Assembly (NCBI GenBank): GCA_032718475.1
Contig: JAUCBJ010006384.1
Location: 1 to 43,102, forward strand
DNA from: Nemertoderma westbladi
Taxonomy: Eukaryota; Animalia; Xenacoelomorpha
DNA length: 43,102 nt
Reading direction: 5' to 3'
The notes below the pieces were generated by a model. The model ran no database searches. It was not told the DNA's origin and saw only the letters and a program-made list of their open reading frames with translations. The position numbers were made by a program, and so were the translations under genes. Positions within the stretch are counted from its first letter, which is position 1. Each line of letters starts with the position of its first letter. This document shows positions 5,918 through 39,917 of this stretch, in pieces.

Positions 5918-6068
5918 GGGTGCGGCTTTGGATCGCCGACTCAACGACCGCCAACGCGAAGCGATGCTGGACCAAAAGGATCGCGGCAACGAACTCTTGG
6001 AAATCGACGTGTCGAAGCGCAGGATGGAGAAACAAGGGAACGATGGTGTGGAACAGTTCATAGAGAAG
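5918..6068 (+). CDS. RBM25: RBM25-like splicing factor, internal exon A (GAALDRRLNDRQREAMLDQKDRGNELLEIDVSKRRMEKQGNDGVEQFIEK)
   Basis: Acceptor TTTCCTACAG, donor AAG|GTTTGT. The peptide resembles RBM25 RGSALQKRLRDREKEMEADERDR...RQRLLAEG. Enters in phase 2, exits in phase 0. Confidence 0.85.
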
Positions 6069-9000
6069 GTTTGTAGGGAACGACGGTGTGGAACTGTTCA
6101 TAGAGAAGGTTTGTAGGGAACGACGGTGTGGAACAGTTCATGGAGAAGGTTTGTAGGGAACGACGGTGTGGAACAGTTCATAGAGAAGGTTTGTAGGGAA
6201 CGATGGTGTGGAACAGTTCATAGACAAGGTTTGTAGGGAACGACGGTGTGGAACAGTTTATAGAGAATGTTTGTAGGGAACGACGGTGTGGAACAGTTTA
6301 TAGAGAAGGTTTGTAGGGAACGACGGTGTGGAACAGTTCATAGAGAAGGTTTGTAGGGAACGACGGTGTGGAACAGTTCATAGAGAAGGTTTGTAGGGAA
6401 CGACGGTGTGGAACAGTTTATAGAGAATGTTTGTAGGGAACGACGGTGTGGAACAGTTTATAGAGAAGGTTTGTAGGGAACGACGGTGTGGAACAGTTCA
6501 TAGAGAAGGTTTGTAGGGAACGACGGTGTGGAACAGTTCATGGAGAAGGTTTGTAGGGAACGACGGTGTGGAACAGTTCATAGAGAAGGTTTGTAGGGAA
6601 CGATGGTGTGGAACAGTTCATAGACAAGGTTTGTAGGGAACGACGGTGTGGAACAGTTCATAGAGAAGGTTTGTAGGGAACGACGGTGTGGAACAGTTTA
6701 TAGAGAATGTTTGTAGGGAACGACGGTGTGGAACAGTTTATAGAGAAGGTTTGTAGGGAACGACGGTGTGGAACAGTGCATAGAGAAGGTTTGTAGGGAA
6801 CGACGGAGTGGAACAGTTCATAGAGAAGGTTTGTAGGGAACGACGGTGTGGAACAGTTTATAGATAATGTTTGTAGGGAACGACGGTGTGGAACAGTTTA
6901 TAGAGAAAGTTTGTAGGGAACGACGGTGTGGAACAGTTCACAGAGAAGGTTTGTAGGGAACGACGGTGTGGAACAGTTCATAGAGAAGGTTTGTAGGGAA
7001 CGATGGTGTGGAACAGTTCATAGACAAGGTTTGTAGGGAACGACGGTGTGGAACAGTTCATAGAGAAGGTTTGTAGGGAACGACGGTGTGGAACAGTTTA
7101 TAGAGAATGTTTGTAGGGAACGACGGTGTGGAACAGTTTATAGAGAAGGTTTGTAGGGAACGACGGTGTGGAACAGTTCATAGAGAAGGTTTGTAGGGAA
7201 CGACGGTGTGGAACAGTTCATAGAGAAGGTTTGTAGGGAACGACGGTGTGGAACAGTTCATAGAGAAGGTTTGTAGGGAACGACGGTGTGGAACAGTTCA
7301 TGGAGAAGGTTTGTAGGGAACGACGGTGTGGAACAGTTCATAGAGAAGGTTTGTAGGGAACGATGGTGTGGAACAGTTCATAGACAAGGTTTGTAGGGAA
7401 CGACGGTGTGGAACAGTTTATAGAGAATGTTTGTAGGGAACGACGGTGTGGAACAGTTTATAGAGAAGGTTTGTAGGGAACGACGGTGTGGAACAGTTCA
7501 TAGAGAAGGTTTGTAGGGAACGACGGTGTGGAACAGTTCATAGAGAAGGTTTGTAGGGAACGACGATGTGGAACAGTTTATAGAGAATGTTTGTAGGGAA
7601 CGACGGTGTGGAACAGTTTATAGAGAAGGTTTGTAGGGAACGACGGTGTGGAACAGTTCATAGAGAAGGTTTGTAGGGAACGACGGTGTGGAACAGTTCA
7701 TGGAGAAGGTTTGTAGGGAACGACGGTGTGGAACAGTTCATAGAGAAGGTTTGTAGGGAACGATGGTGTGGAACAGTTCATAGACAAGGTTTGTAGGGAA
7801 CGACGGTGTGGAACAGTTCATAGAGAAGGTTTGTAGGGAACGACGGTGTGGAACAGTTTATAGAGAATGTTTGTAGGGAACGACGGTGTTGAACAGTTTA
7901 TAGAGAAGGTTTGTAGGGAACGACGGTGTGGAACAGTTCATAGAGAAGGTTTGTAGGGAACGACGGTGTGGAACAGTTCATAGAGAAGGTTTGTAGGGAA
8001 CGACGGTGTGGAACAGTTCATAGAGAAGGTTTGTAGGGAACGACGGTGTGGAACAGTTTATAGAGAAGGTTTGTAGGGAACGACGGTGTGGAACAGTTTA
8101 TAGAGAATGTTTGTAGGGAACGATGGTGTGGAACAGTTTATAGAGAATGTTTGTAGGGAACGACGGTGTGGAACAGTTTATAGAGAAGGTTTGTAGGGAA
8201 CGACGGTGTGGAACAGTTCATTGAGAAGGTTTCTAGGGAACGACGGTGTGGAACAGTTCATAGAGAAGGTTTGTAGGGAACGATGGTGTGGAACAGTTCA
8301 TAGACAAGGTTTGTAGGGAACGACGGTGTGGAACAGTTCATAGAGAAGGTTTGTAGGGAACGACGGTGTGGAACAGTTTATAGAGAATGTTTGTAGGGAA
8401 CGACGGTGTGGAACAGTTTATAGAGAAGGTTTGTAGGGAACGACGGTGTGGAACAGTTCATAGAGAAGGTTTGTAGGGAACGACGGTGTGGAACAGTTCA
8501 TAGAGAAGGTTTGTAGGGAACGACGGTGTGGAACAGTTTATAGAGAATGTTTGTAGGGAACGACGGTGTGGAACAGTTTATAGAGAAGGTTTGTAGGGAA
8601 CGACGGTGTGGAACAGTTCATAGAGAAGGTTTGTAGGGAACGACGGTGTGGAACAGTTCATAGAGAAGGTTTGTAGGGAACGATGGTGTGGAACAGTTCA
8701 TAGACAAGGTTTGTAGGGAACGACGGTGTGGAACAGTTCATAGAGAAGGTTTGTAGGGAACGACGGTGTGGAACAGTTTATAGAGAATGTTTGTAGGGAA
8801 CGACGGTGTGGAACAGTTTATAGAGAAGGTTTGTAGGGAACGACGGTGTGGAACAGTTTATAGAGAAGGTTTGTAGGGAACGACGGTGTGGAACAGTTCA
8901 TAGAGAAGCTTTGTAGGGAACGACGGTGTGGAACAGTTCATAGACAACGTTTGTAGGGAACGACGGTGTGGAACAGTTCATAGAGAAGGTTTGTAGGGAA

Positions 9001-9475
9001 CGACGATGTGGAACAGTTCATAGAGAAGGTTTGTAGGGAACGACGGTGTGGAACAGTTCATAGAGAAGGTTTGTAGGGAACGACGGTGTGGAACAGTTCA
9101 TAGAGAAGGTTTGTAGGGAACGACGGTGTGGAACAGTTCATAGAGAAGGTTTGTAGGGAACGACGGTGTGGAACAGTTCATAGAGAAGGTTTGTAGGGAA
9201 CGACGGTGTGGAACAGTTCATAGAGAAGGTTTGTAGGGAACGACGGTGTGGAACAGTTTATAGAGAAGGTTTGTAGGGAACGACGGTGTGGAACAGTTCA
9301 TAGAGAAGGTTTGTAGGGAACGATGGTGTGGAACAGTTCATAGAGAAGGTTTGTAGGGAACGACTGTGTGGAACAGTTCATAGAGAAGGTTTGTAGGGAA
9401 CGACGGTGTGGAACAGTTCATAGAGAAGGTTTGTAGGGAACGACGGTGTGGAACAGTTTATAGAGAAGGTTTGTA
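6035..9475 (+). repeat. 40-bp minisatellite AGGGAACGACGGTGTGGAACAGTTCATAGAGAAGGTTTGT, ~86 copies, made of the exon A 3' end plus its donor site
   Basis: 40-bp periodicity with point variants. The first copy overlaps the coding exon; the last copy continues into unique intron (GTTTGTAACGTC). Confidence 0.97.
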
Positions 9476-9616
9476 ACGTCCCGTCTCCAAGATAGCGTCC
9501 CAGTCGGTTCCACATAATTATTATTGAATTAATTAATTATTATAACTCTGATTATCAATTATTTTCTCTTGTAATTATTTATTCTGGTTGAGATTATCTT
9601 ATTAATTACATTGTAG

Positions 9617-9790
9617 ATGAAAGCGGATGCGGAACGACATTTAGAAACTCCGCCACCGGAACAAAGATTCCATATCTCAGCGCCGGTAACTCCAATTCCC
9701 GAAGAGGTCGCCAGGGGGCGTAGTGTACAATCCAGCGAGTCGCCGGTGATGGAGAGAGAGGGGCGGAGACCCAGACACCGAAAGGAACAG
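9617..9790 (+). CDS. RBM25: RBM25-like internal exon B (MKADAERHLETPPPEQ...GRRPRHRKEQ)
   Basis: Acceptor ACATTGTAG, donor CAG|GTAGGA, phase 0/0. EK|MKADAERH resembles RBM25 QRMEQEAERR. GC-rich relative to the flanking intron. Confidence 0.8.
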
Positions 9791-11077
9791 GTAGGAACGG
9801 TGGTACCTAGGTAGGAACGGTGGAACCAAGGTAGGAACAGTGGAACCAAGGTAGGAACGGTAGAACCAAGGTAGGAACGGTGGAACCAAGGTAGGAACGG
9901 TGGAACCAAAGTAGGAACGGTGGAACCAGGGTAGGAACGGAGGAACCAGGGTAGGAACGGAGGAACCAGGGTAGGAACGGTGGAACCAAGTTAGGAACGG
10001 TGGAACCAAGGTAGGAACGGTGTAACCAAGTTAGGGACGGTGGAACCAAGGTAGGAACGGTGGAACCAAGGTAGGAACGGTGGAACCAAGGTAGGAACGG
10101 TGGAACCAAGGTGGGAACGGTGGAACCAAGGTAGGAACGGTGGAACCAAGGTAGGAACGGTGGAACCAAGGTGGGAACGGTGGAACCAAGTTAGGAACGG
10201 TGTAACCAAGTTAGGGACGGTGGAACCAAGGTAGGAACGGTGGAACCAAGGTAGGAACGGTGGAACCAACGTAGGAACGGTAGAACCAGGGTAGGAACGG
10301 TAGAACCAAGGTAGGAACGGAGGAACCCGGGTAGGAACGGTGGAACCAAGGTGGGAACGGTGGAACCAAGGTAGGAACGGTGGAACCAAGTTAAGAACGG
10401 TAGAACCAAGGTAGGAACGGTGGAACCAAGGTAGGAACGGTAGAACCAAGGTGGGAACGGTGGAACCAAGGTAGGAACGGTAGAACCAAGGTGGGAACGG
10501 TGGAACCAAGGTAGGAACGGTGGAACCAAGGTGGGAACGGTGGAACCAAGGTAGGAACGGTGGAACCAAGGTGGGAACGGTGGAACCAAGGTGGGAACGG
10601 TGGAACCAAGGTAGGAACGGTGGAACCAAGGTGGGAACGGTGGAACCAAGGTAGGAACGGTGGAACCAAGGTAGGAACGGTGGAACCAAGGTAGGAACGG
10701 TGGAACCAAGGTAGGAACGGTGGAACCAAGGTGGGAACGGTGGAACCAAGGTAGGAACGGTGGAACCAAGGTAGGAACGGTAGAACCAAGGTGGGAACGG
10801 TGGAACCAAGGTAGGAACGGTGGAACCAAGGTGGGAACGGTGGAACCAAGGTAGGAACGGTGGAACCAAGGTAGGAACGGTGGAACCAAGGTAGGAACGG
10901 TGGAACCAAGGTAGGAACGGTGGAACCAAGGTAGGAACGGTGGAACCAAGGTAGGAACGGTGGAACCAAGGTAGGAACGGTGGAACCAAAGTAGGAACGG
11001 TGGAACCAGGGTAGGAACGGTGGAACCAAGGTAGGAACGGTGGAACAAAGGTGGGAACGGTGGAACCAAGGTAGGAA
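9791..11077 (+). repeat. 20-bp minisatellite GTAGGAACGGTGGAACCAAG, ~64 copies, starting exactly at the exon B donor
   Basis: 20-bp periodicity. Most units begin GT and end AG, giving AG|GT at most junctions. Confidence 0.97.
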
Positions 11078-11247
11078 GTATCTTATCGGTTAACTAACTT
11101 ATCGGTTTTGTTTGCTTTTAAAATTATCTACTGCTGTACACAATTGTTACCTACCGGTAAGGTTTTTTCTTAACTCGCTTGACTAATTAAAATAAAAATG
11201 ATTAATATTTTATGATATTTCAAGTCTGTGTTGTTATGTTACTATAG

Positions 11248-11444
11248 CGACGAACACCAAGGCGCCGGTCAACCAGTCATGACAGACAAATCCCATCAGC
11301 CGTTTCCCAGGCAACCGCCATACCGACCAATGATGATGACGTCATAGGAGCAGACAAACCAGTCGCTCAGCCTAACTTTGTGCCTGCGTTCAGAGTCGCA
11401 GATATGGGGGGAGTTACCATGCCAACCGCGGTCACTGTCCCACA
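11248..11444 (+). CDS. RBM25: RBM25-like internal exon C (RRTPRRRSTSHDRQIPSAV...DMGGVTMPTAVTVP)
   Basis: Acceptor GTTACTATAG, donor CA|GTAAGT. Open when entered in phase 0 from exon B; exits in phase 2, matching exon D. Assigned by phase continuity rather than a recognised motif. Confidence 0.75.
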
Positions 11445-11565
11445 GTAAGTTACCATGCCAACCGCGGTCACTGTCCCACAGTAAGTTACCATGCCAACCG
11501 CGGTCACTGTCCCACAGTAAGTTACCATGCCAACCGCGGTCACTGTCCCACAGTAAGTTACCATG
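11412..11565 (+). repeat. 36-bp tandem repeat AGTTACCATGCCAACCGCGGTCACTGTCCCACAGTA, 4.3 copies, exon C 3' end plus donor
   Basis: Four identical units from 11412. Each junction recreates CA|GTAAGT. Confidence 0.95.
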
Positions 11566-11741
11566 TCAACAAGATTTTATATATTTTTTACTTTGTCCGG
11601 GATCCATATTGTCCTATATATCCACCTAGATTATACCTATATACGTATACCTAGTAGCTATGGTAACCTATTCTAAAGTCATGGGGCATGGGCAACATTA
11701 AATAGTCTGTCCAGGATTTGGAAGTTACATAGAATACATCG

Positions 11742-11996
11742 GAAATTTAAAAGGGGAGGGGGGGGGGGGTAACCCTTCGGTTTTTCGTTATTTTGTACAT
11801 GTCTGCAATGTGGTTGAAAAATGCGTAGAAAACGATATACCATCAGAAAGAGGATCATCAAAAGTAAATAACGAATAAATAACGAACCCCCCCCCCCCGA
11901 TTTGGTATCGTTACATAACATAACTATTTTTATTAAAGGGCGTTATTTGCCCAGTTATTTAACCCAGGGCAGTAAAATCCTGGGCAAATAACTCCC
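11742..11996. repeat. Short inverted repeats, probable MITE remnants
   Basis: G-run...TTCGTTATTT (~11752-11793) pairs with AAATAACGAA-C-run (~11877-11898). GGGCGTTATTTGCCCAG (11938-11954) pairs with CTGGGCAAATAACTCCC (11980-11996). Confidence 0.45.
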
Positions 11997-12894
11997 TAAC
12001 TGGTTAATAAACATGTTATTACACACTTTAAATATAACTTTATATGTTGCCGTTATATTTCTTCCAGTTACCCAACCACAACCGCTTCACCGCGTGTAGC
12101 AATTAAAAATTTCTAAAAGGGTTTTGTTTGGGGGCTGAGATATTAAAATGGGGCGTGGAATTTTTGGGGGGATTAATAACTATTAATATTTATTTATTAC
12201 ACTATACATAAACTATATATTAAGTTATATTAAAATTGCAGCCAATCAAAAGCCAGATATTCATTTTTAATGGGATTACCATATCCACAGCCACCACCAT
12301 CTCGTTTTACTAACGGAAACTGTTTTACATATCCGTACCTTATATTTTATAAGGTTGAAAGTTACAAAATTAACATATTCTAGGTTGAAGTAAATTATTG
12401 TACAGTAGGTTAGTCTCTAACATAACCGATCGGATATTCATGTATTATGCGACATGGGTCCGAAATGAATGTGTCTGTTGCAGGCAGAAAATTGAATACT
12501 GTAGTGCAAACTACTTTTGCTGATTTTCCGGTATCTGAACACTGGGGCAGGGGTGTAAACGCTATGCCGACAACTGACAACCAAAACCGACAACCATTAT
12601 TGACGCTAATTAATGTTAATTATAAATTGAGGTAAAGGAGCATATTACAGCGGAATGTATTCTAACCAAAACAATAACCGAGAGTCATGATAATAGGTTA
12701 CAGTTTCGTATTTGTCGTTGTCGGCAGTAGTGGTTTGTCGGGTGTCGGATGTTTGCGTAAGGTTTACTCCCTTCGGGCGGTCCTCTGAGGTTTGATGAGA
12801 TTGGCAGTGGGGTGTAAAGTAATGGCAAAATTTCTTGAACACCGTAAGTCTAAACTTCTAAAGGTAACTTAGATCTGAAAGTATAGTAGGCCTG

Positions 12895-13317
12895 AGTGTC
12901 TGAGTCTGTACTCCCAGATATTCCCATTGGCGATATCTCCTTTGCAGAAGTGAAGGCTGCTGCAAAGAGCATTAAGACCAATCGAGCTAGTGGAGTAGAT
13001 GGTGTTCCCCCTGAGGTCTTTAAAATACCTGAGTGTTTAAAGCTCATCTATCCCATCATAGTAGACATGTCGATCTAGACATGTTGATCTCGACATGTCG
13101 ATCTAGACATGTTGATCTCGATCTTTCCATGATTTGGAAGTCACCGAGAATTAATCGAAAACTTAAGTGCCGATTATTTAGAGCAGCAGTAGTTCCAGTT
13201 AGAAAATGTCATGGGTGATAGGGAGTTGTGGCGGCGCAATTTTGTCGACAAGCCGGCACAGCATTCTTAAAAATGCAGCTGCAATGCAGCATGCCGATCC
13301 TAGTAGTAGTAGTAGTT
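12895..13317 (+). mobile_element. Second RTE-like LINE copy, internally deleted, with (AGT)n 3' tail
   Basis: 12930-13070 closely matches the reverse complement of ~2815-2955 (IKTNRASGVDGVPPEVFKIPECLKLIYPIIVDM). It then jumps to a C-terminal-like segment IWKSPRINRKLKCRLFRAAVVPV, then DRELWRR, and a TAGTAGTAG tail at ~13301-13317. Confidence 0.8.
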
Positions 13318-13812
13318 TAGTAGGCCTACCAGAGTTAAGGTACCGGCTATAATACCAGAATATGGGTATACACCTTTCAGATTCATTAAAACTGCAGACT
13401 GGCTGAAATTAAAATACCAGTAACTACTAGCACTAGGCCTACCGAAACACCTGCCCACTTATCTAGTCAGTCAGTCAATAATATTATTGTGAGATTGCGA
13501 ACTCAAACTACTGCTACATATTGAACAAGCTGTTAGGCCTATCAATATACAGATACATAGGAATGTACCAGATACCTGATATCATTATAGCATCTTCACC
13601 TTCAGATACCGGTACCGGTAGTAGAATTGAAATTTAATACTGAAAGTAACTAAATAACAACTTATTTGGCCCTATGGCAGAAAGTGATATTTTTGTTAAG
13701 GATATACATTAAAGTGATATATTGCCCGATTAAAAGTGTATAATAACATAATTAATCATACAAACATTCATTACCAATAAATATTATTATAGTTATAATT
13801 TATTCGTTTTAG

Positions 13813-13940
13813 GGAAAGAACTCGGGAAGCTGATTACAGTAGCAGCGACAACGAAGATCGTAGTTTCAGTTTACCTGTAGCTCCTCAGTTGCAAAATCAA
13901 CACACATACAAACCGATCCAAGTCCATCTCCCCTCCTATG
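13813..13940 (+). CDS. RBM25: RBM25-like internal exon D (ERTREADYSSSDNEDRSFSLPVAPQLQNQHTYKPIQVHLPSY)
   Basis: Acceptor TTCGTTTTAG, donor ATG|GTTAGT. Enters in phase 2, exits in phase 1, open and compatible with exons C and E. Confidence 0.72.
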
Positions 13941-13991
13941 GTTAGTAGATCAAACCAATAATGTAATCATCGGCAATAAATGTTAACAAAT

Positions 13992-16900
13992 TTCCCTAGT
14001 TACCATCTGATCCCCTGGGTTGTCATCTGCCTCATCTGCTTCCCTCGGTTATCATCTGATTCCCTTTTTTATCATCTGATTCCCTTTGTTATCATCTGAT
14101 TCCCTTTGTTTTCATCTGATTCCCTTTGTTATCATCTGATTCCCTTTGTTTTCATCTGATTCCCTTTGTTATCATCTGATTCCCTTTGTTATCATCTGAT
14201 TCCCTTTGTTATCATCTGATTCCCTTTGTTTTCATCTGATTCCCTTTGTTATCATCTGATTCCCTTTGTTATCATCTGATTCCCTTTGTTATCATCTGAT
14301 TCCCTTTGTTATCATCTGATTCCCTTTGTTATCATCTGATTCCCTTTGTTATCATCTGATTCCCTCGGTTATCATCTGATTCCCTTTGTTATCATCTGAT
14401 TCCCTTTGTTATCATCTGATTCCCTTTGTTATCATCTGATTCCCTTTGTTATCATCTGATTCCCTTTGTTATCATCTGATTCCCTTTGTTATCATCTGAT
14501 TCCCTTTGTTATCATCTGATTCCCTTTGTTATCATCTGATTCCCTTTGTTATCATCTGATTCCCTTTGTTATCATCTGATTCCCTTTGTTATCATCTGAT
14601 TCCCTCGGTTACCATCTGATTCCCTTTGTTATCATCTGATTCCCTTTGTTATCATCTGATTCCCTTTGTTATCATCTGATTCCCTTTGTTATCATCTGAT
14701 TCCCTTTGTTATCATCTGATTCCCTTTGTTATCATCTGATTCCCTTTGTTATCATCTGATTCCCTTTGTTATCATCTGATTCCCTCGGTTACCATCTGAT
14801 TCCCTTTGTTATCATCTGATTCCCTCGGTTACCATCTGATTCCCTTTGTTATCATCTGATTCCCTTTGTTATCATCTGATTCCCTTTGTTATCATCTGAT
14901 TCCCTTTGTTATCATCTGATTCCCTTTGTTATCATCTGATTCCCTTTGTTATCATCTGATTCCCTTTGTTATCATCTGATTCCCTCGGTTACCATCTGAT
15001 TCCCTTTGTTATCATCTGATTCCCTTTGTTATCATCTGATTCCCTTTGTTATCATCTGATTCCCTTTGTTATCATCTGATTCCCTTTGTTATCATCTGAT
15101 TCCCTTTGTTATCATCTGATTCCCTTTGTTATCATCTGATTCCCTCGGTTACCATCTGATTCCCTTTGTTATCATCTGATTCCCTCGGTTACCATCTGAT
15201 TCCCTTTGTTATCATCTGATTCCCTTTGTTATCATCTGATTCCCTTTGTTATCATCTGATTCCCTTTGTTATCATCTGATTCCCTTTGTTATCATCTGAT
15301 TCCCTTTGTTATCATCTGATTCCCTTTGTTATCACCTGATTCCCTTTGTTATCATCTGATTCCCTTTGTTATCATCTGATTCCCTTTGTTATCATCTGAT
15401 TCCCTTTGTTATCATCTGATTCCCTTTGTTATCATCTGATTCCCTTTGTTATCATCTGATTCCCTTTGTTATCATCTGATTCCCTCGGTTACCATCTGAT
15501 TCCCTTTGTTATCATCTGATTCCCTTTGTTATCATCTGATTCCCTTTGTTATCATCTGATTCCCTTTGTTATCATCTGATTCCCTTTGTTATCATTTGAT
15601 TCCCTTTGTTATCATCTGATTCCCTTTGTTATCATCTGATTCCCTTTGTTATCATCTGATTCCCTTTGTTATCATCTGATTCCCTTTGTTATCATCTGAT
15701 TCCCTCGGTTACCATCTGATTCCCTCGGTTACCATCTGATTCCCTCGGTTACCATCTGATTCCCTCGGTTACCATCTGATTCCCTCGGTTACCATCTGAT
15801 TCCCTTTGTTATCATCTGATTCCCTTTGTTATCATCTGATTCCCTCGGTTATCATCTGATTCCCTCGGTTATCATCTGATTCCCTTTGTTATCATCTGAT
15901 TCCCTTTGTTATCATCTGATTCCCTTTGTTATCATCTGATTCCTTTTGTTATCATCTGATTCCCTTTGTTATCATCTGATTCCCTTTGTTATCATCTGAT
16001 TCCCTTTGTTATCATCTGATTCCCTTTGTTATCATCTGATTCCCTTTGTTATCATCTGATTCCCTTTGTTATCATCTGATTCCCTCGGTTACCATCTGAT
16101 TCCCTTTGTTATCATCTGATTCCCTTTGTTATCATCTGATTCCCTTTGTTATCATCTGATTCCCTTTGTTATCATCTGTTTCCCTTTGTTATCATCTGAT
16201 TCCCTTTGTTATCATCTGATTCCCTTTGTTATCATCTGATTCCCTTTGTTATCATCTGATTCCCTTTGTTACCATCTGATTCCCTTTGTTACCATCTGAT
16301 TCCCTTTGTTATCATCTGATTCCCTTTGTTATCATCTGATTCCCTTTGTTATCATCTGATTCCCTTTGTTATCATCTGATTCCCTTTGTTATCATCTGAT
16401 TCCTTTTGTTATCATCTGATTCCCTTTGTTATCATCTGATTCCCTTTGTTATCATCTGATTCCCTTTGTTATCATCTGATTCCCTTTGTTATCATCTGAT
16501 TCCCTTTGTTATCATCTGATTCCCTTTGTCATCATCTGATTCCCTTTGTTATCATCTGATTCCCTTTGTTATCATCTGATTCCCTTTGTTATCATCTGAT
16601 TCCCTTTGTTATCATCTGATTCCCTTTGTTATCATCTGATTCCCTTTGTTATCATCTGATTCCCTTTGTTATCATCTGATTCCCTTTGTTATCATCTGAT
16701 TCCCTTTGTTATCATCTGATTCCCTTTGTTATCATCTGATTCCCTTTGTTATCATCTGATTCCCTCGGTTACCATCTGATTCCCTTTGTTATCATCTGAT
16801 TCCCTTTGTTATCATCTGATTCCCTTTGTTATCATCTGATTCCCTTTGTTATCATCTGATTCCCTTTGTTATCATCTGATTCCCTTTGTTATCATCTGAT

Positions 16901-19900
16901 TCCCTTTGTTATCACCTGATTCCCTTTGTTATCATCTGATTCCCTTTGTTATCATCTGATTCCCTTTGTTATCATCTGATTCCCTTTGTTATCATCTGTC
17001 CCTCGTTTATCATCTGATTCCCTTTGTTATCATCTGATTCCCTTTGTTATCATCTGATTCCTTTTGTTATCATCTGATTCCCTTTGTTATCATCTGATTC
17101 CCTTTGTTATCATCTGATTCCCTTTGTTATCATCTGATTCCTTTTGTTATCATCTGATTCCCTTTGTTATCATCTGATTCCCTTTGTTATCATCTGATTC
17201 CCTCGGTTATCATCTGATTCCCTCGGTTACCATCTGATTCCCTTTGTTATCATCTGATTCCCTTTGTTATCATCTGATTCCCTTTGTTATCATCTGATTC
17301 CCTTTGTTATCATCTGATTCCCTTTGTTATCATCTGATTCCTTTTGTTATCATCTGATTCCCTTTGTTATCATCTGATTCCTTTTGTTATCATCTGATTC
17401 CCTTTGTTATCATCTGATTCCCTTTGTTATCATCTGATTCCCTTTGTTATCATCTGATTCCCTTTGTTATCATCTGATTCCCTTTGTTATCATCTGATTC
17501 CCTTTGTTATCACCTGATTCCCTTTGTTATCATCTGATTCCCTCGGTTATCATCTGATTCCCTTTGTTATCATCTGATTCCCTTTGTTATCATCTGATTC
17601 CCTTTGTTATCATCTGATTCCCTTTGTTACCATCTGATTCCCTTTGTTACCATCTGATTCCCTTTGTAACCATCTGATTCCTTCGGTTATCATCTGATTC
17701 CCTTTGTTATCATCTGATTCCCTTTGTTATCATCTGATTCCCTTTGTTATCATCTGATTCCCTTTGTTATCATCTGATTCCCTTTGTTATCATCTGATTC
17801 CCTTTGTTATCATCTGATTCCCTTTGTTATCATCTGATTCCCTCGGTTACCATCTGATTCCCTTTGTTATCATCTGATTCCCTCGGTTACCATCTGATTC
17901 CCTCGGTTACCATCTGATTCCCTCGGTTACCATCTGATTCCCTCGGTTATCATCTGATTCCCTTTGTTATCTTCTCATTCCCTTTGTTATCATCTGATTC
18001 CCTTTGTTATCATCTGATTCCTTTTGTTATCATCTGATTCCCTTTGTTATCATCTGATTCCCTTTGTTATCATCTGATTCCCTTTGTTATCATCTGATTC
18101 CCTTTGTTATCATCTGATTCCCTTTGTTATCATCTGATTCCCTTTGTTATCATCTGATTCCCTTTGTTATCATCTGATTCCCTTTGTTATCATCTGATTC
18201 CCTTTTTTATCATCTGATTCCCTTTGTTACCATCTGATTCCCTTTGTTACCATCTGATTCCCTCGGTTACCATCTGATTCCCTCGGTTACCATCTGATTC
18301 CCTCGGTTACCATCTGATTCCCTTTGTTATCATCTGATTCCCTCGGTTACCATCTGATTCCCTTTGTTATCATCTGATTCCCTTTGTTATCATCTGATTC
18401 CCTTTGTTATCATCTGATTCCCTTTGTTATCATCTGATTCCCTTTGTTATCATCTGATTCCCTTTGTTATCATCTGATTCCCTCGGTTACCATCTGATTC
18501 CCTCGGTTACCATCTGATTCCCTCGGTTACCATCTGATTCCCTCGGTTACCATCTGATTCCCTCGGTTACCATCTGATTCCCTCGGTTACCATCTGATTC
18601 CCTCGGTTACCATCTGATTCCCTCGGTTACCATCTGATTCCCTTTGTTATCATCTGATTCCCTTTGTTATCATCTGATTCCCTCGGTTATCATCTGATTC
18701 CCTCGGTTATCATCTGATTCCCTTTGTTATCATCTGATTCCCTTTGTTATCATCTGATTCCCTTTGTTATCATCTGATTCCTTTTGTTATCATCTGATTC
18801 CCTTTGTTATCATCTGATTCCCTTTGTTATCATCTGATTCCCTTTGTTATCATCTGATTCCCTTTGTTATCATCTGATTCCCTTTGTTACCATCTGATTC
18901 CCTCGGTTACCATCTGATTCCCTCGGTTACCATCTGATTCCCTCGGTTACCATCTGATTCCCTCGGTTATCATCTGATTCCCTTTGTTATCTTCTCATTC
19001 CCTTTGTTATCATCTGATTCCCTTTGTTATCATCTGATTCCTTTTGTTATCATCTGATTCCCTTTGTTATCATCTGATTCCCTTTGTTATCATCTGATTC
19101 CCTTTGTTATCATCTGATTCCCTTTGTTATCATCTGATTCCCTTTGTTATCATCTGATTCCCTTTGTTATCATCTGATTCCCTTTGTTATCATCTGATTC
19201 CCTTTGTTATCATCTGATTCCCTTTTTTATCATCTGATTCCCTTTGTTACCATCTGATTCCCTTTGTTACCATCTGATTCCCTCGGTTACCATCTGATTC
19301 CCTCGGTTACCATCTGATTCCCTCGGTTACCATCTGATTCCCTTTGTTATCATCTGATTCCCTCGGTTACCATCTGATTCCCTTTGTTATCATCTGATTC
19401 CCTTTGTTATCATCTGATTCCCTTTGTTATCATCTGATTCCCTTTGTTATCATCTGATTCCCTTTGTTATCATCTGATTCCCTTTGTTATCATCTGATTC
19501 CCTCGGTTACCATCTGATTCCCTCGGTTACCATCTGATTCCCTCGGTTACCATCTGATTCCCTCGGTTACCATCTGATTCCCTCGGTTACCATCTGATTC
19601 CCTTTGTTATCATCTGATTCCCTTTGTTATCATCTGATTCCCTCGGTTATCATCTGATTCCCTCGGTTATCATCTGATTCCCTTTGTTATCATCTGATTC
19701 CCTTTGTTATCATCTGATTCCCTTTGTTATCATCTGATTCCTTTTGTTATCATCTGATTCCCTTTGTTATCATCTGATTCCCTTTGTTATCATCTGATTC
19801 CCTTTGTTATCATCTGATTCCCTTTGTTATCATCTGATTCCCTTTGTTATCATCTGATTCCCTTTGTTATCATCTGATTCCCTCGGTTACCATCTGATTC

Positions 19901-28900: not shown

Positions 28901-31900
28901 TTATCATCTGATTCCCTTTGTTATCATCTGATTCCCTTTGTTATCATCTGATTCCCTTTGTTATCATCTGATTCCCTTTGTTATCATCTGATTCCCTTTG
29001 TTATCATCTGATTCCCTTTGTTATCATCTGATTCCCTTTGTTATCATCTGATTCCCTTTGTTATCATCTGATTCCCTTTGTTATCATCTGATTCCCTTTG
29101 TTATCATCTGATTCCCTTTGTTATCATCTGATTCCCTTTGTTATCATCTGATTCCCTTTGTTATCATCTGATTCCCTTTGTTATCATCTGATTCCCTTTG
29201 TTATCATCTGATTCCCTTTGTTATCATCTGATTCCCTTTGTTATCATCTGATTCCCTTTGTTATCATCTGATTCCCTTTGTTATCATCTGATTCCCTTTG
29301 TTATCATCTGATTCCCTTTGTTATCATCTGATTCCCTTTGTTATCATCTGATTCCCTTTGTTATCATCTGATTCCCTTTGTTATCATCTGATTCCCTTTG
29401 TTATCATCTGATTCCCTTTGTTATCATCTGATTCCCTTTGTTATCATCTGATTCCCTTTGTTATCATCTGATTCCCTTTGTTATCATCTGATTCCCTTTG
29501 TTATCATCTGATTCCCTTTGTTATCATCTGATTCCCTTTGTTATCATCTGATTCCCTCTGTTATCATCTGATTCCCTTTGTTATCATCTGATTCCCTCTG
29601 TTATCATCTGATTCCCTTTGTTATCATCTGATTCCCTTTGTTATCATCTGATTCCCTTTGTTATCATCTGATTCCCTTTGTTATCATCTGATTCCCTTTG
29701 TTATCATCTGATTCCCTTTGTTATCATCTGATTCCCTTTGTTATCATCTGATTCCCTTTGTTATCATCTGATTCCCTTTGTTATCATCTGATTCCCTTTG
29801 TTATCATCTGATTCCCTTTGTTATCATCTGATTCCCTTTGTTATCATCTGATTCCCTTTGTTATCATCTGATTCCCTTTGTTATCATCTGATTCCCTTTG
29901 TTATCATCTGATTCCCTTTGTTATCATCTGATTCCCTTTGTTATCATCTGATTCCCTTTGTTATCATCTGATTCCCTTTGTTATCATCTGATTCCCTTTG
30001 TTATCATCTGATTCCCTTTGTTATCATCTGATTCCCTTTGTTATCATCTGATTCCCTTTGTTATCATCTGATTCCCTTTGTTATCATCTGATTCCCTTTG
30101 TTATCATCTGATTCCCTTTGTTATCATCTGATTCCCTTTGTTATCATCTGATTCCCTTTGTTATCATCTGATTCCCTTTGTTATCATCTGATTCCCTTTG
30201 TTATCATCTGATTCCCTTTGTTATCATCTGATTCCCTTTGTTATCATCTGATTCCCTTTGTTATCATCTGATTCCCTTTGTTATCATCTGATTCCCTTTG
30301 TTATCATCTGATTCCCTTTGTTATCATCTGATTCCCTTTGTTATCATCTGATTCCCTTTGTTATCATCTGATTCCCTTTGTTATCATCTGATTCCCTCTG
30401 TTATCATCTGATTCCCTTTGTTATCATCTGATTCCCTTTGTTATCATCTGATTCCCTTTGTTATCATCTGATTCCCTTTGTTATCATCTGATTCCCTTTG
30501 TTATCATCTGATTCCCTTTGTTATCATCTGATTCCCTTTGTTATCATCTGATTCCCTTTGTTATCATCTGATTCCCTCTGTTATCATCTGATTCCCTTTG
30601 TTATCATCTGATTCCCTTTGTTATCATCTGATTCCCTTTGTTATCATCTGATTCCCTTTGTTATCATCTGATTCCCTTTGTTATCATCTGATTCCCTTTG
30701 TTATCATCTGATTCCCTTTGTTATCATCTGATTCCCTTTGTTATCATCTGATTCCCTTTGTTATCATCTGATTCCCTTTGTTATCATCTGATTCCCTTTG
30801 TTATCATCTGTTCCCTCTGTTATCATCTGATTCCCTTTGTTATCATCTGATTCCCTTTGTTATCATCTGATTCCCTTTGTTATCATCTGATTCCCTTTGT
30901 TATCATCTGATTCCCTTTGTTATCATCTGATTCCCTTTGTTATCATCTGATTCCCTTTGTTATCATCTGATTCCCTTTGTTATCATCTGATTCCCTTTGT
31001 TATCATCTGATTCCCTCTGTTATCATCTGATTCCCTCGGTTACCATCTGATTCCCTTTGTTATCATCTGATTCCCTCGGTTATCATCTGATTCCCTTTGT
31101 TATCATCTGATTCCCTTTGTTATCATCTGATTCCCTTTGTTACCATCTGATTCCCTTTGTTATCATCTGATTCCCTTTGTTATCATCTGATTCCCTTCGG
31201 TTATCATCTGATTCCCTTTGTTATCATCTGATTCCCTTTGTTATCATCTGATTCCCTTTGTTATCATCTGATTCCCTTTGTTATCATCTGATTCCCTTTG
31301 TTATCATCTGATTCCCTTTGTTATCATCTGATTCCCTCGGTTATCATCTGATTCCCTCGGTTACCATCTGATTCCCTTTGTTATCATCTGATTCCCTCGG
31401 TTATCATCTGATTCCCTTTGTTATCATCTGATTCCCTTTGTTATCATCTGATTCCCTTTGTTACCATCTGATTCCCTTTGTTATCATCTGATTCCCTTTG
31501 TTACCATCTGATTCCCTTCGGTTATCATCTGATTCCCTTTGTTATCATCTGATTCCCTTTGTTATCATCTGATTCCCTTTGTTATCACCTGATTCCCTTT
31601 GTTATCATCTGATTCCCTTTGTTATCATCTGATTCCCTTTGTTATCATCTGATTCCCTTTGTTATCATCTGATTCCCTTTGTTATCATCTGATTCCCTTT
31701 GTTATCATCTGATTCCCTTTGTTATCATCTGATTCCCTTTGTTATCATCTGATTCCCTTTGTTATCATCTGATTCCCTTTGTTATCATCTGATTCCCTTT
31801 GTTATCATCTGATTCCCTTTGTTATCATCTGATTCCCTTTGTTATCATCTGATTCCCTTTGTTATCATCTGATTCCCTTTGTTATCATCTGATTCCCTTT

Positions 31901-34900
31901 GTTATCATCTGATTCCCTTTGTTATCATCTGATTCCCTTTGTTATCATCTGATTCCCTTTGTTATCATCTGATTCCCTTTGTTATCATCTGATTCCCTTT
32001 GTTATCATCTGATTCCCTTTGTTATCATCTGATTCCCTTTGTTATCATCTGATTCCCTTTGTTATCATCTGATTCCCTTTGTTATCATCTGATTCCCTTT
32101 GTTATCATCTGATTCCCTTTGTTATCATCTGATTCCCTTTGTTATCATCTGATTCCCTTTGTTATCATCTGATTCCCTTTGTTATCATCTGATTCCCTTT
32201 GTTATCATCTGATTCCCTCGGTTACCATCTGATTCCCTTTGTTATCATCTGATTCCCTTTGTTATCATCTGATTCCCTTTGTTATCATCTGATTCCCTTT
32301 GTTATCATCTGATTCCCTTTGTTATCATCTGATTCCCTTTGTTATCACCTGATTCCCTTTGTTATCATCTGATTCCCTTTGTTATCATCTGATTCCCTTT
32401 GTTATCATCTGATTCCCTTTGTTATCATCTGATTCCCTTTGTTTCATCTGTCCCTCGTTTATCATCTGATTCCCTTTGTTATCATCTGATTCCCTTTGTT
32501 ATCATCTGATTCCCTTTGTTATCATCTGATTCCCTTTGTTATCATCTGATTCCCTTTGTTATCATCTGATTCCCTTTGTTATCATCTGATTCCCTTTGTT
32601 ATCATCTGATTCCCTTTGTTATCATCTGATTCCCTTTGTTATCATCTGATTCCCTCGGTTATCATCTGATTCCCTCGGTTACCATCTGATTCCCTTTGTT
32701 ATCATCTGATTCCCTCGGTTATCATCTGATTCCCTTTGTTATCATCTGATTCCCTTTGTTACCATCTGATTCCCTTTGTTATCATCTGATTCCCTTTGTT
32801 ATCATCTGATTCCCTTTGTTATCATCTGATTCCCTTTGTTATCATCTGATTCCCTTTGTTATCATCTGATTCCCTCGGTTATCATCTGATTCCCTCGGTT
32901 ACCATCTGATTCCCTTTGTTATCATCTGATTCCCTTTGTTATCATCTGATTCCCTTTGTTATCATCTGATTCCCTTTGTTATCATCTGATTCCCTTTGTT
33001 ATCATCTGATTCCTTTTGTTATCATCTGATTCCCTTTGTTATCATCTGATTCCTTCGGTTATCATCTGATTCCCTTTGTTATCATCTGATTCCCTTTGTT
33101 ATCATCTGATTCCCTTTGTTATCATCTGATTCCCTTTGTTATCATCTGATTCCCTTTGTTATCATCTGATTCCCTTTGTTATCATCTGATTCCCTTTGTT
33201 ATCATCTGATTCCATTTGTTATCATCTGATTCCCTCGGTTACCATCTGATTCCCTCGGTTACCATCTGATTCCCTTTGTTATCATCTGATTCCCTCGGTT
33301 ATCATCTGATTCCCTTTGTTATCATCTGATTCCCTTTGTTATCATCTGATTCCCTTTGTTATCATCTGATTCCCTTTGTTATCATCTGATTCCCTTTGTT
33401 ATCACCTGATTCCCTTTGTTATCATCTGATTCCCTTTGTTATCATCTGATTCCCTCGGTTACCATCTGATTCCCTCGGTTACCATCTGATTCCCTCGGTT
33501 ACCATCTGATTCCCTCTGTTACCATCTGATTCCCTTTGTTATCATCTGATTCCCTTTGTTATCATCTGATTCCCTTTGTTATCATCTGATTCCCTCGGTT
33601 ACCATCTGATTCCCTTTGTTATCATCTGATTCCCTTTGTTATCATCTGATTCCCTTTGTTATCATCTGATTCCCTCGGTTACCATCTGATTCCCTCGGTT
33701 ACCATCTGATTCCCTCGGTTACCATCTGATTCCCTCGGTTATCATCTGATTCCCTTTGTTATCTTCTCATTCCCTTTGTTATCATCTGATTCCCTTTGTT
33801 ATCATCTGATTCCCTTTGTTATCATCTGATTCCTTTTGTTATCATCTGATTCCCTTTGTTATCATCTGATTCCCTTTGTTATCATCTGATTCCCTTTGTT
33901 ATCATCTGATTCCCTTTGTTATCATCTGATTCCCTTTGTTATCATCTGATTCCCTTTGTTATCATCTGATTCCCTTTGTTATCATCTGATTCCCTTTGTT
34001 ATCATCTGATTCCCTTTGTTATCATCTGATTCCCTTTGTTACCATCTGATTCCCTTTGTTACCATCTGATTCCCTCGGTTACCATCTGATTCCCTCGGTT
34101 ACCATCTGATTCCCTTTGTTATCATCTGATTCCCTTTGTTATCATCTGATTCCCTCGGTTACCATCTGATTCCCTTTGTTATCATCTGATTCCCTCGGTT
34201 ACCATCTGATTCCCTTTGTTATCATCTGATTCCCTCGGTTACCATCTGATTCCCTTTGTTATCATCTGATTCCCTTTGTTATCATCTGATTCCCTTTGTT
34301 ATCATCTGATTCCCTTTGTTATCATCTGATTCCCTTTGTTATCATCTGATTCCCTTTGTTATCATCTGATTCCCTCGGTTACCATCTGATTCCCTCAGTT
34401 ACCATCTGATTCCCTCGGTTACCATCTGATTCCCTTTGTTATCATCTGATTCCCTTTGTTACCATCTGATTCCCTTTGTTATCATCTGATTCCCTCGGTT
34501 ACCATCTGATTCCCTTTGTTATCATCTGATTCCCTCGGTTACCATCTGATTCCCTTTGTTATCATCTGATTCCCTTTGTTATCATCTGATTCCCTTTGTT
34601 ACCATCTGATTCCCTTTGTTACCATCTGATTCCCTCGGTTACCATCTGATTCCCTCGGTTACCATCTGATTCCCTTTGTTATCATCTGATTCCCTTTGTT
34701 ATCATCTGATTCCCTCGGTTACCATCTGATTCCCTTTGTTATCATCTGATTCCCTCGGTTACCATCTGATTCCCTTTGTTATCATCTGATTCCCTCGGTT
34801 ACCATCTGATTCCCTTTGTTATCATCTGATTCCCTTTGTTATCATCTGATTCCCTTTGTTATCATCTGATTCCCTTTGTTATCATCTGATTCCCTTTGTT

Positions 34901-37900
34901 ATCATCTGATTCCCTTTGTTACCATCTGATTCCCTCGGTTACCATCTGATTCCCTCGGTTACCATCTGATTCCCTTTGTTATCATCTGATTCCCTTTGTT
35001 ATCATCTGATTCCCTCGGTTACCATCTGATTCCCTTTGTTATCATCTGATTCCCTCGGTTACCATCTGATTCCCTTTGTTATCATCTGATTCCCTCGGTT
35101 ACCATCTGATTCCCTTTGTTATCATCTGATTCCCTTTGTTATCATCTGATTCCCTTTGTTATCATCTGATTCCCTTTGTTATCATCTGATTCCCTTTGTT
35201 ATCATCTGATTCCCTTTGTTATCATCTGATTCCCTTTGTTATCATCTGATTCCCTTTGTTATCATCTGATTCCCTTTGTTATCATCTGATTCCCTTTGTT
35301 ATCATCTGATTCCCTTTGTTATCATCTGATTCCCTTTGTTATCATCTGCTTCCCTCTGTTACCACCTGATTCCCTTTGTTATCATCTGATTCCCTTTGTT
35401 ATCATCTGATTCCCTTTGTTATCATCTGATTCCCTCGGTTATCATCTGATTCCCTTTGTTATCTTCTCATTCCCTTTGTTATCATCTGATTCCCTTTGTT
35501 ATCATCTGATTCCCTTGGTTATCATCTGATTCCCTTTGTTATCATCTGATTCCCTTTGTTATCATCTGATTCCCTCGGTTACCATCTGATTCCCTTTGTT
35601 ATCATCTGATTCCCTTTGTTATCATCTGATTCCCTTTGTTATCATCTGATTCCCTTTGTTATCATCTGATTCCCTTTGTTATCATCTGATTCCCTTTGTT
35701 ATCATCTGATTCCCTTTGTTATCATCTGATTCCCTCGGTTACCATCTGATTCCTTTTGTTATCATCTGATTCCCTTTGTTATCATCTGATTCCCTTTGTT
35801 ATCATCTGATTCCCTTTGTTATCATCTGATTCCCTTTGTTTTCATCTGATTCCCTTTGTTATCATCTGATTCCCTTTGTTACCATCTGATTCCCTTTGTT
35901 ATCATCTGATTCCCTTTGTTATCATCTGATTCCCTTTGTTATCATCTGATTCACTCGGTTATCATCTCATTCCCTTTGTTATCATCTCATTCCCTTTGTT
36001 ATCATCTGATTCCCTCGGTTATCATCTGATTCCCTTTGTTATCATCTGATTCCCTTTGTTATCATCTGATTCCCTTTGTTACCATCTGATTCCCTTTGTT
36101 ATCATCTGATTCCCTTTGTTATCATCTGATTCCTTTTGTTATCATCTGATTCCCTCGGTTATCATCTGATTCCCTCGGTTACCATCTGATTCCCTCGGTT
36201 ACCATCTGATTCCCTCGGTTACCATCTGATTCCCTCGGTTATCATCTGATTCCCTTTGTTACCATCTGATTCCCTTTGTTATCATCTGATTCCCTTTGTT
36301 ATCATCTGATTCCTTTTGTTATCATCTGATTCCCTCGGTTATCATCTGATTCCCTCGGTTACCATCTGATTCCCTCGGTTACCATCTGATTCCCTCGGTT
36401 ATCATCTGATTCCCTTTGTTATCATCTGATTCCCTTTGTTATCATCTGATTCCCTTTGTTATCATCTGATTCCCTTTGTTATCATCTGATTCCCTCGGTT
36501 ATCATCTCATTCCCTTTGTTATCATCTCATTCCTTTTGTTATCATCTGATTCCCTCGGTTACCATCTGATTCCCTTTGTTATCACCTGATTCCCTTTGTT
36601 ATCATCTGATTCCTTTTGTTATCATCTGATTCCCTTTGTTATCATCTGATTCCCTTTGTTATCATCTGATTCCCTCGGTTATCATCTGATTCCCTTTGTT
36701 ATCATCTGATTCCCTTTGTTATCATCTGATTCCCTTTGTTATCATCTGATTCCCTTTGTTATCATCTGATTCCCTCGGTTATCATCTGATTCCCTTTGTT
36801 ATCATCTGATTCCCTCGGTTATCATCTGATTCCCTTTGTTATCATCTGATTCCCTCGGTTATCATCTGATTCCCTTTGTTATCATCTGATTCCCTTTGTT
36901 ATCATCTGATTCCCTTTGTTATCATCTGATTCCCTTTGTTATCATCTGATTCCCTTTGTTATCATCTGATTCCCTCGGTTACCATCTGATTCCTTTTGTT
37001 ATCATCTGATTCCCTTTGTTATCATCTGATTCCCTTTGTTATCATCTGATTCCCTTTGTTATCATCTGATTCCCTTTGTTTTCATCTGATTCCCTTTGTT
37101 ATCATCTGATTCCCTTTGTTACCATCTGATTCCCTTTGTTATCATCTGATTCCCTTTGTTATCATCTGATTCCCTTTGTTATCATCTGATTCCCTCGGTT
37201 ATCATCTCATTCCCTTTGTTATCATCTCATTCCCTTTGTTATCATCTGATTCCCTCGGTTATCATCTGATTCCCTTTGTTATCATCTGATTCCCTTTGTT
37301 ATCATCTGATTCCCTTTGTTACCATCTGATTCCCTTTGTTATCATCTGATTCCCTTTGTTATCATCTGATTCCCTTTGTTATCATCTGATTCCCTTTGTT
37401 ATCATCTGATTCCCTTTGTTATCATCTGATTCCCTTTGTTATCATCTGATTCCCTCGGTTATCATCTGATTCCCTTTGTTATCATCTGATTCCCTTTGTT
37501 ATCATCTGATTCCCTTTGTTATCATCTGATTCCCTTTGTTACCATCTGATTCCCTTTGTTATCATCTGATTCCCTTTGTTATCATCTGATTCCCTCGGTT
37601 ATCATCTGATTCCTTCGGTTACCATCTGATTCCCTCGGTTACCATCTGATTCCCTCGGTTACCATCTGATTCCCTCGGTTATCATCTGATTCCCTTTGTT
37701 ACCATCTGATTCCCTTTGTTATCATCTGATTCCCTTTGTTATCATCTGATTCCTTTTGTTATCATCTGATTCCCTTTGTTATCATCTGATTCCCTCGGTT
37801 ACCATCTGATTCCCTTTGTTATCATCTGATTCCCTCGGTTACCATCTGATTCCCTTTGTCATCATCTGATTCCCTTTGTTATCATCTGATTCCCTCGGTT

Positions 37901-39601
37901 ATCATCTGATTCCCTTTGTTACCATCTGATTCCCTTTGTTATCATCTGATTCCCTCGGTTATCATCTGATTCCCTTTGTTACCATCTGATTCCCTTTGTT
38001 ATCATCTGATTCCCTTTGTTATCATCTGATTCCCTTTGTTATCATCTGATTCCTTTTGTTATCATCTGATTCCCTCGGTTATCATCTGATTCCCTCGGTT
38101 ACCATCTGATTCCCTCGGTTACCATCTGATTCCCTCGGTTATCATCTGATTCCCTTTGTTATCATCTGATTCCCTTTGTTATCATCTGATTCCCTTTGTT
38201 ATCATCTGATTCCCTTTGTTATCATCTGATTCCCTCGGTTATCATCTCATTCCCTTTGTTATCATCTCATTCCTTTTGTTATCATCTGATTCCCTCGGTT
38301 ACCATCTGATTCCCTTTGTTATCACCTGATTCCCTTTGTTATCATCTGATTCCTTTTGTTATCATCTGATTCCCTTTGTTATCATCTGATTCCCTTTGTT
38401 ATCATCTGATTCCCTTTGTTATCATCTGATTCCCTCGGTTATCATCTGATTCCCTTTGTTATCATCTGATTCCCTTTGTTATCATCTGATTCCCTTTGTT
38501 ATCATCTGATTCCCTTTGTTATCATCTGATTCCCTCGGTTATCATCTGATTCCCTTTGTTATCATCTGATTCCCTCGGTTATCATCTGATTCCCTTTGTT
38601 ATCATCTGATTCCCTCGGTTATCATCTGATTCCCTTTGTTATCATCTGATTCCCTCGGTTATCATCTGATTCCCTTTGTTATCACCTGATTCCCTTTGTT
38701 ATCATCTGATTCCCTCGGTTATCATCTGATTCCCTTTGTTATCATCTGATTCCCTTTGTTATCATCTGATTCCCTTTGTTATCTTCTCATTCCTTTTGTT
38801 ATCATCTGATTCCCTCGGTTACCATCTGATTCCCTTTGTTATCACCTGATTCCCTTTGTTATCATCTGATTCCTTTTGTTATCATCTGATTCCCTTTGTT
38901 ATCATCTGATTCCCTTTGTTATCATCTGATTCCCTTTGTTATCATCTGATTCCCTCGGTTATCATCTGATTCCCTTTGTTATCATCTGATTCCCTCGGTT
39001 ATCATCTGATTCCCTTTGTTATCATCTGATTCCCTTTGTTATCATCTGATTCCCTTTGTTATCATCTGATTCCCTTTGTTATCATCTGATTCCCTCGGTT
39101 ACATCTGATTCCTTTTGTTATCATCTGATTCCCTTTGTTATCATCTGATTCCCTTTGTTATCACCTGATTCCTTTTGTTATCATCTGATTCCCTTTGTTA
39201 TCATCTGATTCCCTTTGTTATCATCTGATTCCCTTTGTTATCATCTGATTCCCTTTGTTATCATCTGATTCCCTTTGTTATCATCTGATTCCCTCGGTTA
39301 TCATCTGATTCCCTTTGTTATCATCTGATTCCCTTTGTTATCATCTGATTCCCTTTGTTATCATCTGATTCCCTCGGTTACCATCTGATTCCCTTTGTTA
39401 TCATCTGATTCCCTTTGTTATCATCTGATTCCCTTTGTTATCATCTCATTCCCTTTGTTATCATCTGATTCCCTTTGTTATCATCTGATTCCCTTTGTTA
39501 TCATCTGATTCCCTTTGTTATCATCTGATTCCCTTTGTTATCATCTGATTCCCTCGGTTATCATCTGATTCCCTTTGTTATCATCTGATTCCCTCGGTTA
39601 T
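13992..39601 (+). repeat. Intronic 20-bp satellite ATCATCTGATTCCCTTTGTT (variant ACCATCTGATTCCCTCGGTT), ~25.6 kb, roughly 1,280 copies
   Basis: Continuous 20-bp periodicity, degenerate at the 5' edge, with higher-order duplications. Ends about 20 nt before the exon E acceptor. Confidence 0.98.
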
Positions 39602-39622
39602 TCCCCTTTTCTATTTTCTTAG

Positions 39623-39801
39623 ACTCAAAGAACTTAAGCCAACAACCAACCACCGTCGCACCTGAGTTCGATCGCGAACCCGATACGGTTACCTTATCGA
39701 AACCGCAACAGATAAGGTCACCATCGGATGAACCAACTGTAATTCCTCCTAAAACTAGCACGGATGATAAACGGAGAACAATAAAGCAATTAATTGAACA
39801 G
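39623..39801 (+). CDS. RBM25: RBM25-like internal exon E, ending at the start of the PWI-flanking region (...KTSTDDKRRTIKQLIEQ)
   Basis: Strong acceptor CCCCTTTTCTATTTTCTTAG, donor CAG|GTTCGT, enters in phase 1. STDDKRRTIKQLIEQ matches RBM25 NTEEKRKHIKSLIEK(IPT). The PWI exon(s) were not found in the window. Confidence 0.85.
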
Positions 39802-39917
39802 GTTCGTATAAACGGAGAACAATAAAGCAATTAATTGAACAGGTTCGTATAAACGGAGAACAATAAAGCAATTAATTGAACAGGTTCGTATAAACGGAGA
39901 ACAATAAAGCAATTAAT
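39767..39917 (+). repeat. 41-bp tandem repeat ATAAACGGAGAACAATAAAGCAATTAATTGAACAGGTTCGT, 3.7 copies, exon E 3' end plus donor
   Basis: Units at 39767, 39808 and 39849, partial unit at 39890-39917. Confidence 0.95.

Follow-up and report, generated by a model that had tools for sequence, protein, structure and literature searches.

Described boundary arrays and the Nemertoderma westbladi locus

Minisatellites that repeat an exon-intron boundary are known in amphioxus as mirages, a name reportedly given by Canestro et al. in 2002. The locus considered here lies in a 43,102-bp stretch of the genome of Nemertoderma westbladi (assembly GCA_032718475.1, contig JAUCBJ010006384.1, positions 1 to 43,102, forward strand), referred to as the window, in which a predicted gene carries tandem arrays at four of five consecutive donors. 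Judged by their structure, these arrays are mirage minisatellites, here at unusually high density. Amphioxus mirages duplicate an exon-intron boundary in tandem. They occur at either boundary, are unstable in length and leave splicing normal, and their origin is called unclear (PMC3087553). Their units measure 10-72 bp in Adh3 and 150-160 bp in the globins (PMC3087553). The hosts named in that paper and in PMC3902484 are Adh3, the globins BflGb6 and BflGb9, troponin C (TnC), and PGBD5, the last of which has two such arrays in lancelets, confirmed by resequencing (PMC3902484).

Human genes contain donor-spanning variable number tandem repeats (VNTRs) with the same arrangement. PMC1557585 lists a 37-bp unit in 5-9 copies in intervening sequence (IVS) 7 of F7, 15-20 copies in IVS13 of CBS, 25 pseudo-sites in 6-16, a 100-bp unit in 10-15 copies in LMNB2, and an 81-bp unit in 16-18 copies in intron 4 of PDGF. 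According to the same text, 50 F7 constructs show that the pseudo-sites are functional yet non-competing, and that the most upstream donor is chosen (PMC1557585). A third group comprises internal tandem repeats at boundaries in human segmental duplications, which average ~30 bp x 4 in De Grassi and Ciccarelli 2009 (PMC2812944). The available parts of PMC2206037 and PMC12783039 contain nothing on junction-spanning arrays, and a literature search that covered few subscription papers turned up, in the texts available, no genome-wide enrichment test of such arrays. The first-pass annotation of the window knew of no named system with this regularity, which is wrong as a claim of novelty, since amphioxus mirages (PMC3087553, PMC3902484) and human donor-spanning VNTRs (PMC1557585) have the same arrangement.

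The Nemertoderma arrays were detected by running Tandem Repeats Finder on the whole window, which is a single haplotype and was chosen because of its donor-array pattern. The four arrays previously placed on exon boundaries were recovered at the same positions. The predicted exons and their arrays are as follows.

5918..6068, plus strand: predicted exon A, 151 nt, donor AAG/GTTTGT at 6069
6035..9475, plus strand: array A, 40 bp x 86.0 (Tandem Repeats Finder)
9617..9790, plus strand: predicted exon B, 174 nt, donor CAG/GTAGGA at 9791
9789..11077, plus strand: array B, 20 bp x 64.4 (Tandem Repeats Finder)
11248..11444, plus strand: predicted exon C, 197 nt, donor ACA/GTAAGT at 11445
11412..11570, plus strand: array C, 36 bp x 4.4, identical units (Tandem Repeats Finder)
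13813..13940, plus strand: predicted exon D, 128 nt, donor ATG/GTTAGT, the sole donor of the five without an array
39623..39801, plus strand: predicted exon E, 179 nt, donor CAG/GTTCGT at 39802
39767..39917, plus strand: array E, 41 bp x 3.7, identical units (Tandem Repeats Finder)

Like amphioxus mirages, these arrays consist of boundary-spanning tandem units that repeat the splice signal, and more than one array occurs per gene, as in PGBD5 with its two. The unit size of 20-41 bp overlaps the 10-72 bp of the Adh3 mirages. However, copy numbers reach 64-86 here, compared with 2-7 in the globin and PGBD5 mirages as far as the available accounts go, and the present gene has duplicated 4/5 consecutive donors and 0/5 acceptors, whereas lancelet mirages occur at both boundary ends. 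The likeness is structural, as the present locus is known from the sequence of one haplotype and its exons are predicted. As in the human VNTRs, the first monomer lies across the exon-intron boundary and is followed by identical pseudo-donors. In contrast to the single array per gene in the available human descriptions, the present gene has four. Most of the F7 unit is intronic (-4/+33); in three of the present units, exon sequence makes up most of the length (33-35 of 36-41 nt). The repeats of segmental duplications described in PMC2812944 also have minisatellite-sized units at exon-intron boundaries. In young paralogues they are often the source of a new intron or an alternative transcript. 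In the present gene, only the first donor preserves the frame, and there is no sign of a new intron.

Unit anatomy and the excess at donors

The five segments are predictions from splice signals and an open joined frame. Each has an AG acceptor after a pyrimidine-rich tract and a GT donor, and the donors match 6-7 of the 9 positions of the consensus. Joined, exons A to E form one open frame of 276 codons, while the other two frames contain 17 and 12 stops. Such a frame appears in 0/10,000 shuffles of the joined exons, a control that ignores the analyst's choice of boundaries, and four phase-compatible junctions would arise by luck about once in 81 cases (hand arithmetic). The GC content is 0.52 in the predicted exons vs 0.37 in the introns. 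A simple scan of the unique DNA with strict filters found no further exon candidates on the plus strand. None of the 5/5 exons matches a Pfam family, with a single sub-threshold match to Calcipressin (E 0.032). Homologue searches with exon A (13 candidates) and exon E (11 candidates) found none. In the ESM Atlas all exon scores were <=0.77, the PDB gave a single non-significant match to N-WASP (E 0.34), and Rfam gave 0 matches. The lone HMMER match, P0121 (E 9e-5), was rejected as spurious: it is a repetitive charged protein without a Pfam family, and its tblastn matches miss all five exons.

On the predicted exons, each array is a minisatellite-sized head-to-tail array with a boundary-spanning unit and a splice signal in most units. 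The array A unit extends from -34 to +6, that is, the last 34 nt of exon A and 6 nt of intron. Array C has a -33/+3 unit and array E a -35/+6 unit around their donors. The description of the units as an exon end plus a few intron nucleotides, proposed earlier, thus holds for A (34+6), C (33+3) and E (35+6). The account of array B as starting at the donor GT needs correction: its 20-bp unit is made up of two diverged copies of a 10-mer matching -8/+2 of donor B, and its seed is bounded by a 5-nt direct repeat (microhomology). Array B does not simply begin at the GT, and by unit sequence all four arrays, B included, are junction-derived. The final partial copy of array C matches the unit start at 14/15 positions, which may be microhomology or a remnant. 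The last copy of array E ends 28 nt in, ahead of its donor.

The splice signal is well retained. The GT persists in 85/86 units of array A and 59/64 units of array B, and AAG/GT in 70/86 units of array A; arrays C and E contain 4 and 3 donor copies, respectively. As in F7, the first monomer carries the authentic donor, its authenticity predicted from the frame, and the intronic pseudo-donors follow. The 276-codon frame stays open with the first donors, and a premature stop results from 14/14 downstream donors tested (copies 2-5 of A, 2-6 of B, 2-4 of C and 2-3 of E), which agrees with the former statement that the first donor and the reading frame remain intact. On these stops, an in-frame use of the copies, either as a translated coding repeat or as a micro-exon array, is rejected. 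Acceptors show no corresponding duplication: 0/5 lie inside a tandem copy, and just one long run comes near any of them, a 25.6-kb satellite in intron D-E.

The association with donors was compared with chance on a collapsed window. Once every array is reduced to one unit, the 43,102 bp collapse to 9,936 bp, and tandem arrays make up ~77% of the full window. Seven arrays start inside the window, of which 4/7 cover a donor vs 0.10 expected (P 1.3e-6), in keeping with the placement of arrays at donors described in the first-pass annotation. A generous version, which accepts donors or acceptors with 50 nt of slack, gives P 1.1e-3. Counted by position, 4 arrays fall on ~167 donor start positions vs 3 to 9 on 9,107 bp (P 3.5e-6 to 6.6e-5), so that the per-base rate at donors is 24- to 73-fold above that of intron interiors, with small n and a selected window. 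No donor is covered by the remaining three arrays, which are a 28-mer, a 17-mer and the 25.6-kb satellite. Some bias toward exon ends is likely, because survival alone cannot lift the donor rate above the intron-interior rate.

Neighbouring arrays and other elements of the window

Further tandem arrays accompany the four donor arrays. Tandem Repeats Finder also detected a 28-bp doublet in the window. The other three are as follows.

1..2529, plus strand: left array, 35 bp x 72.3, units identical, each with an AAA/GTAAGT donor-like site
14032..39594, plus strand: intron D-E satellite, 20 bp x 1,279, pyrimidine-rich
42539..42751: array of 17 bp x 12.6

The left array was excluded from the chance count since its start falls outside the window. 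Its donor-like site matches 7/9 positions of the consensus, and its exon-like part contains no stop in phase 2, which exon A requires, nor in phase 0. It is probably a fifth donor array, with a putative exon lying to the left of the window. No exon was found beside the 17-bp array in the strict-filter scan.

The satellite occupies 25.6 of the 25.7 kb of intron D-E and stops 28 nt ahead of exon E. Only 2 AG dinucleotides are present in its 25,563 sense-strand bases. The unit resembles a branch point with a pyrimidine tract and is not a copy of the acceptor. The last branch-point-like A lies ~35 nt before exon E, which falls within the usual branch-point distance of 19-37 nt given in PMC10078293. 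The satellite may repeat a branch point ~1,279 times. The likeness of its unit to the end of exon D was considered as a route to five of five donors and rejected, as 826/18,892 control windows score as well.

Two fragments of one non-long-terminal-repeat retrotransposon reverse transcriptase family (RVT_1, E 2e-6) lie at 2515-2985 on the minus strand and ~12895-13065 on the plus strand. They are near-identical over ~110 nt, and each adjoins a tandem repeat, namely the 35-bp array and the 28-bp doublet, respectively. On the minus strand at 3537-4553, an intronless stop-to-stop frame of 338 codons encodes an ATXN7L3/Sgf11 homologue, with an Sgf11 zinc finger (E 1e-16) and a weak SCA7 domain. Among the best 120 of 730 matches, vertebrate, echinoderm, brachiopod and hemichordate proteins align with most of its length at ~36-46%. 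None of those 120 matches points to a close relative, although a diverged retrocopy may distort this picture. The frame runs antisense, probably lies within an intron of the gene that carries the arrays, and is either a retrocopy or a nested gene. A broken piggyBac-like transposase (Pfam DDE_Tnp_1_7) lies in two frames at 40911-41784 on the minus strand. Short CCGCTAGAGGGC-type motifs occur at approximately 5199-5211, 5344-5356 and 42449-42464, and may resemble the CTCF motif.

Origin and meaning of the arrays

The explanation that we consider probable, with moderate confidence, is that the arrays arose as short DNA duplications across the exon end and 5' splice site, were expanded by slippage and unequal exchange, and were tolerated through use of the first donor. 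The seed would be a slip of 10-41 nt during replication or repair, from within the exon to just past the donor, and microhomology would aid seeding where it is present, as is clear in B and C. From two copies on, ordinary minisatellite turnover by slippage and unequal exchange would add units. With the exon still ending at the first donor, all extra copies would land in the intron. The first donor would be chosen, as in human F7, and RNA from later donors would contain stops and be degraded; as long as the spliceosome settles on the first donor, the arrays are likely to do no harm. Through a bias at the DNA level, exon ends in this genome would suffer or retain duplications more often than intron interiors.

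The turnover of the arrays bears on the expansion step. Array A contains 20 distinct unit types and array B 17, while arrays C and E contain 1 each. A block of 7 units in array A recurs 29 units apart, a length reached in 21/500 shuffles, and the shared variants are scattered along the array. Along array A, likeness to the exon copy follows no gradient (rho -0.12, P 0.29), and tape-recorder growth from the exon end is rejected on this result. Array A appears to show internal shuffling, not polar growth. The suggestion that arrays of few and many copies are early and late stages of one process fits the contrast of C and E (1 unit type) with A and B (20 and 17), but perfect uniformity is also found in the 72-copy left array. 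In A and B the sense strand is rich in G, with GC skews of 0.60 and 0.46, and carries 66 and 52 two-tier G-quadruplex motifs, respectively; no such motif occurs in arrays C, E or the 72-copy left array. Expansion driven by G-quadruplexes or by skew would suit A and B but not the 72-copy left array or the 1,279-copy array, and was rejected.

Several points weigh against the slippage explanation. It leaves the 24- to 73-fold donor excess unexplained, and does not account for the absence of acceptor duplication (0/5) or for units that are almost all exon. Microhomology in array A is 1 nt only, and intron E no longer has its original start. The exons are predicted from sequence signals, and the homologue searches were negative. 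Moreover, human 6-16 and CBS also use two pseudo-sites (PMC1557585), so first-donor-only use is not guaranteed.

A rival is seeding coupled to splicing or transcription, in which pausing, an R-loop or a nick at a U1-bound donor re-copies the exon end to ~+6/+7. We regard this as unlikely. In its favour, donors are duplicated at 4/5 positions and acceptors at 0/5, the units are exon-heavy, and all four arrays allow a downstream breakpoint at +6/+7 (A +6..+7, B +2..+7, C +3..+18, E +6). Were breakpoints uniform beyond +6, one as close as observed would be expected in ~2/34 cases for A and ~1/35 for E, a post hoc figure in which E is a lower bound. The G-richness of A and B and their G-quadruplex motifs also count in its favour, but C, E and the 72-copy left array are without the motif. 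The breakpoint ranges of B and C are wide and constrain little, and selection alone would set the +6 lower limit. Furthermore, lancelet mirages lie at both 5' and 3' boundaries (PMC3087553), and the F7 unit is -4/+33 (PMC1557585). The particular mechanisms put forward earlier, namely spliceosome-coupled breaks, rolling-circle synthesis and reverse transcription of junction RNAs, find no direct support. The units are unspliced and hold no spliced-junction sequence, two seeds show microhomology, and array A has neither gradient nor polarity.

Chance and survival in a very repeat-rich genome, with exon-internal arrays purged and the window picked for a cluster, appear very unlikely. Tandem arrays do fill ~77% of the window, three of them (the 28-mer, the 17-mer and the 25.6-kb satellite) cover no donor, and the window was selected for the pattern with n=7. 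However, survival alone cannot raise the donor rate above that of intron interiors, and the counts are 4 on ~167 donor start positions vs 3 to 9 on 9,107 bp. The fallback offered at first, that arrays arise anywhere and persist when directed into the intron, fails alone for the same reason, as it cannot yield the 24- to 73-fold excess.

Highly improbable is an artefact, be it misassembly of the arrays or a mistaken reading of the five segments as exons. The exons are without a homologue in the searches made, the gene model and arrays come from assembled sequence, and the left array consists of 72 identical units, so its length could be an assembly product. On the other hand, the register stays constant through the 20 unit types of A and the 17 of B, which a stuttered copy would not show; the five exons are canonical and together give one 276-codon open frame; and comparable arrays in lancelet PGBD5 were confirmed by resequencing (PMC3902484). 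Hardly credible is a role of the later donors as functional decoys that tune expression via unproductive splicing and decay: GT retention (85/86 and 59/64 units), stops from 14/14 later donors and the use of some pseudo-sites in human 6-16 and CBS (PMC1557585) would suit it, but homogenisation would be expected to preserve the GT, stops come free with the 3 unit lengths that do not divide by three, copy numbers vary from 4 to 86, and reverse transcription polymerase chain reaction in amphioxus found no effect on splicing (PMC3087553).

The variants of array A carry a further signal. Third codon positions of the exon frame hold 11/16 distinct exon-derived variants of array A (P 0.007), 7/12 of its variable columns (P 0.045) and 5/5 variants seen >=4 times (P 0.003), in a post hoc test of array A alone. 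Of the five recurrent variants, 3 alter a residue (K>N, E>D, I>M), and one of these 3 lies at donor position -1. The third-position bias would fit sequence exchange between array and exon.

The structure is thus already known, and published accounts call its origin unclear. With 4/5 donors affected and 4 to 86 copies, the Nemertoderma gene is a good place for breakpoint measurement and for a test of the mutational footprint of splicing on DNA. Such arrays lengthen introns (of 43 kb, 9.9 kb are left after collapse) and can lead gene prediction and read mapping astray. A wider reading, which we hold to be doubtful, joins a splicing-coupled duplication hotspot, in which the U1-bound donor fixes the breakpoint at ~+6/+7, with arrays that trade sequence with the coding exon. 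If this were true, the third-codon-position bias of the array A variants would be explained, most exon ends would seed satellites, and an array would serve as a reservoir of exon-end alleles under protein-level selection.

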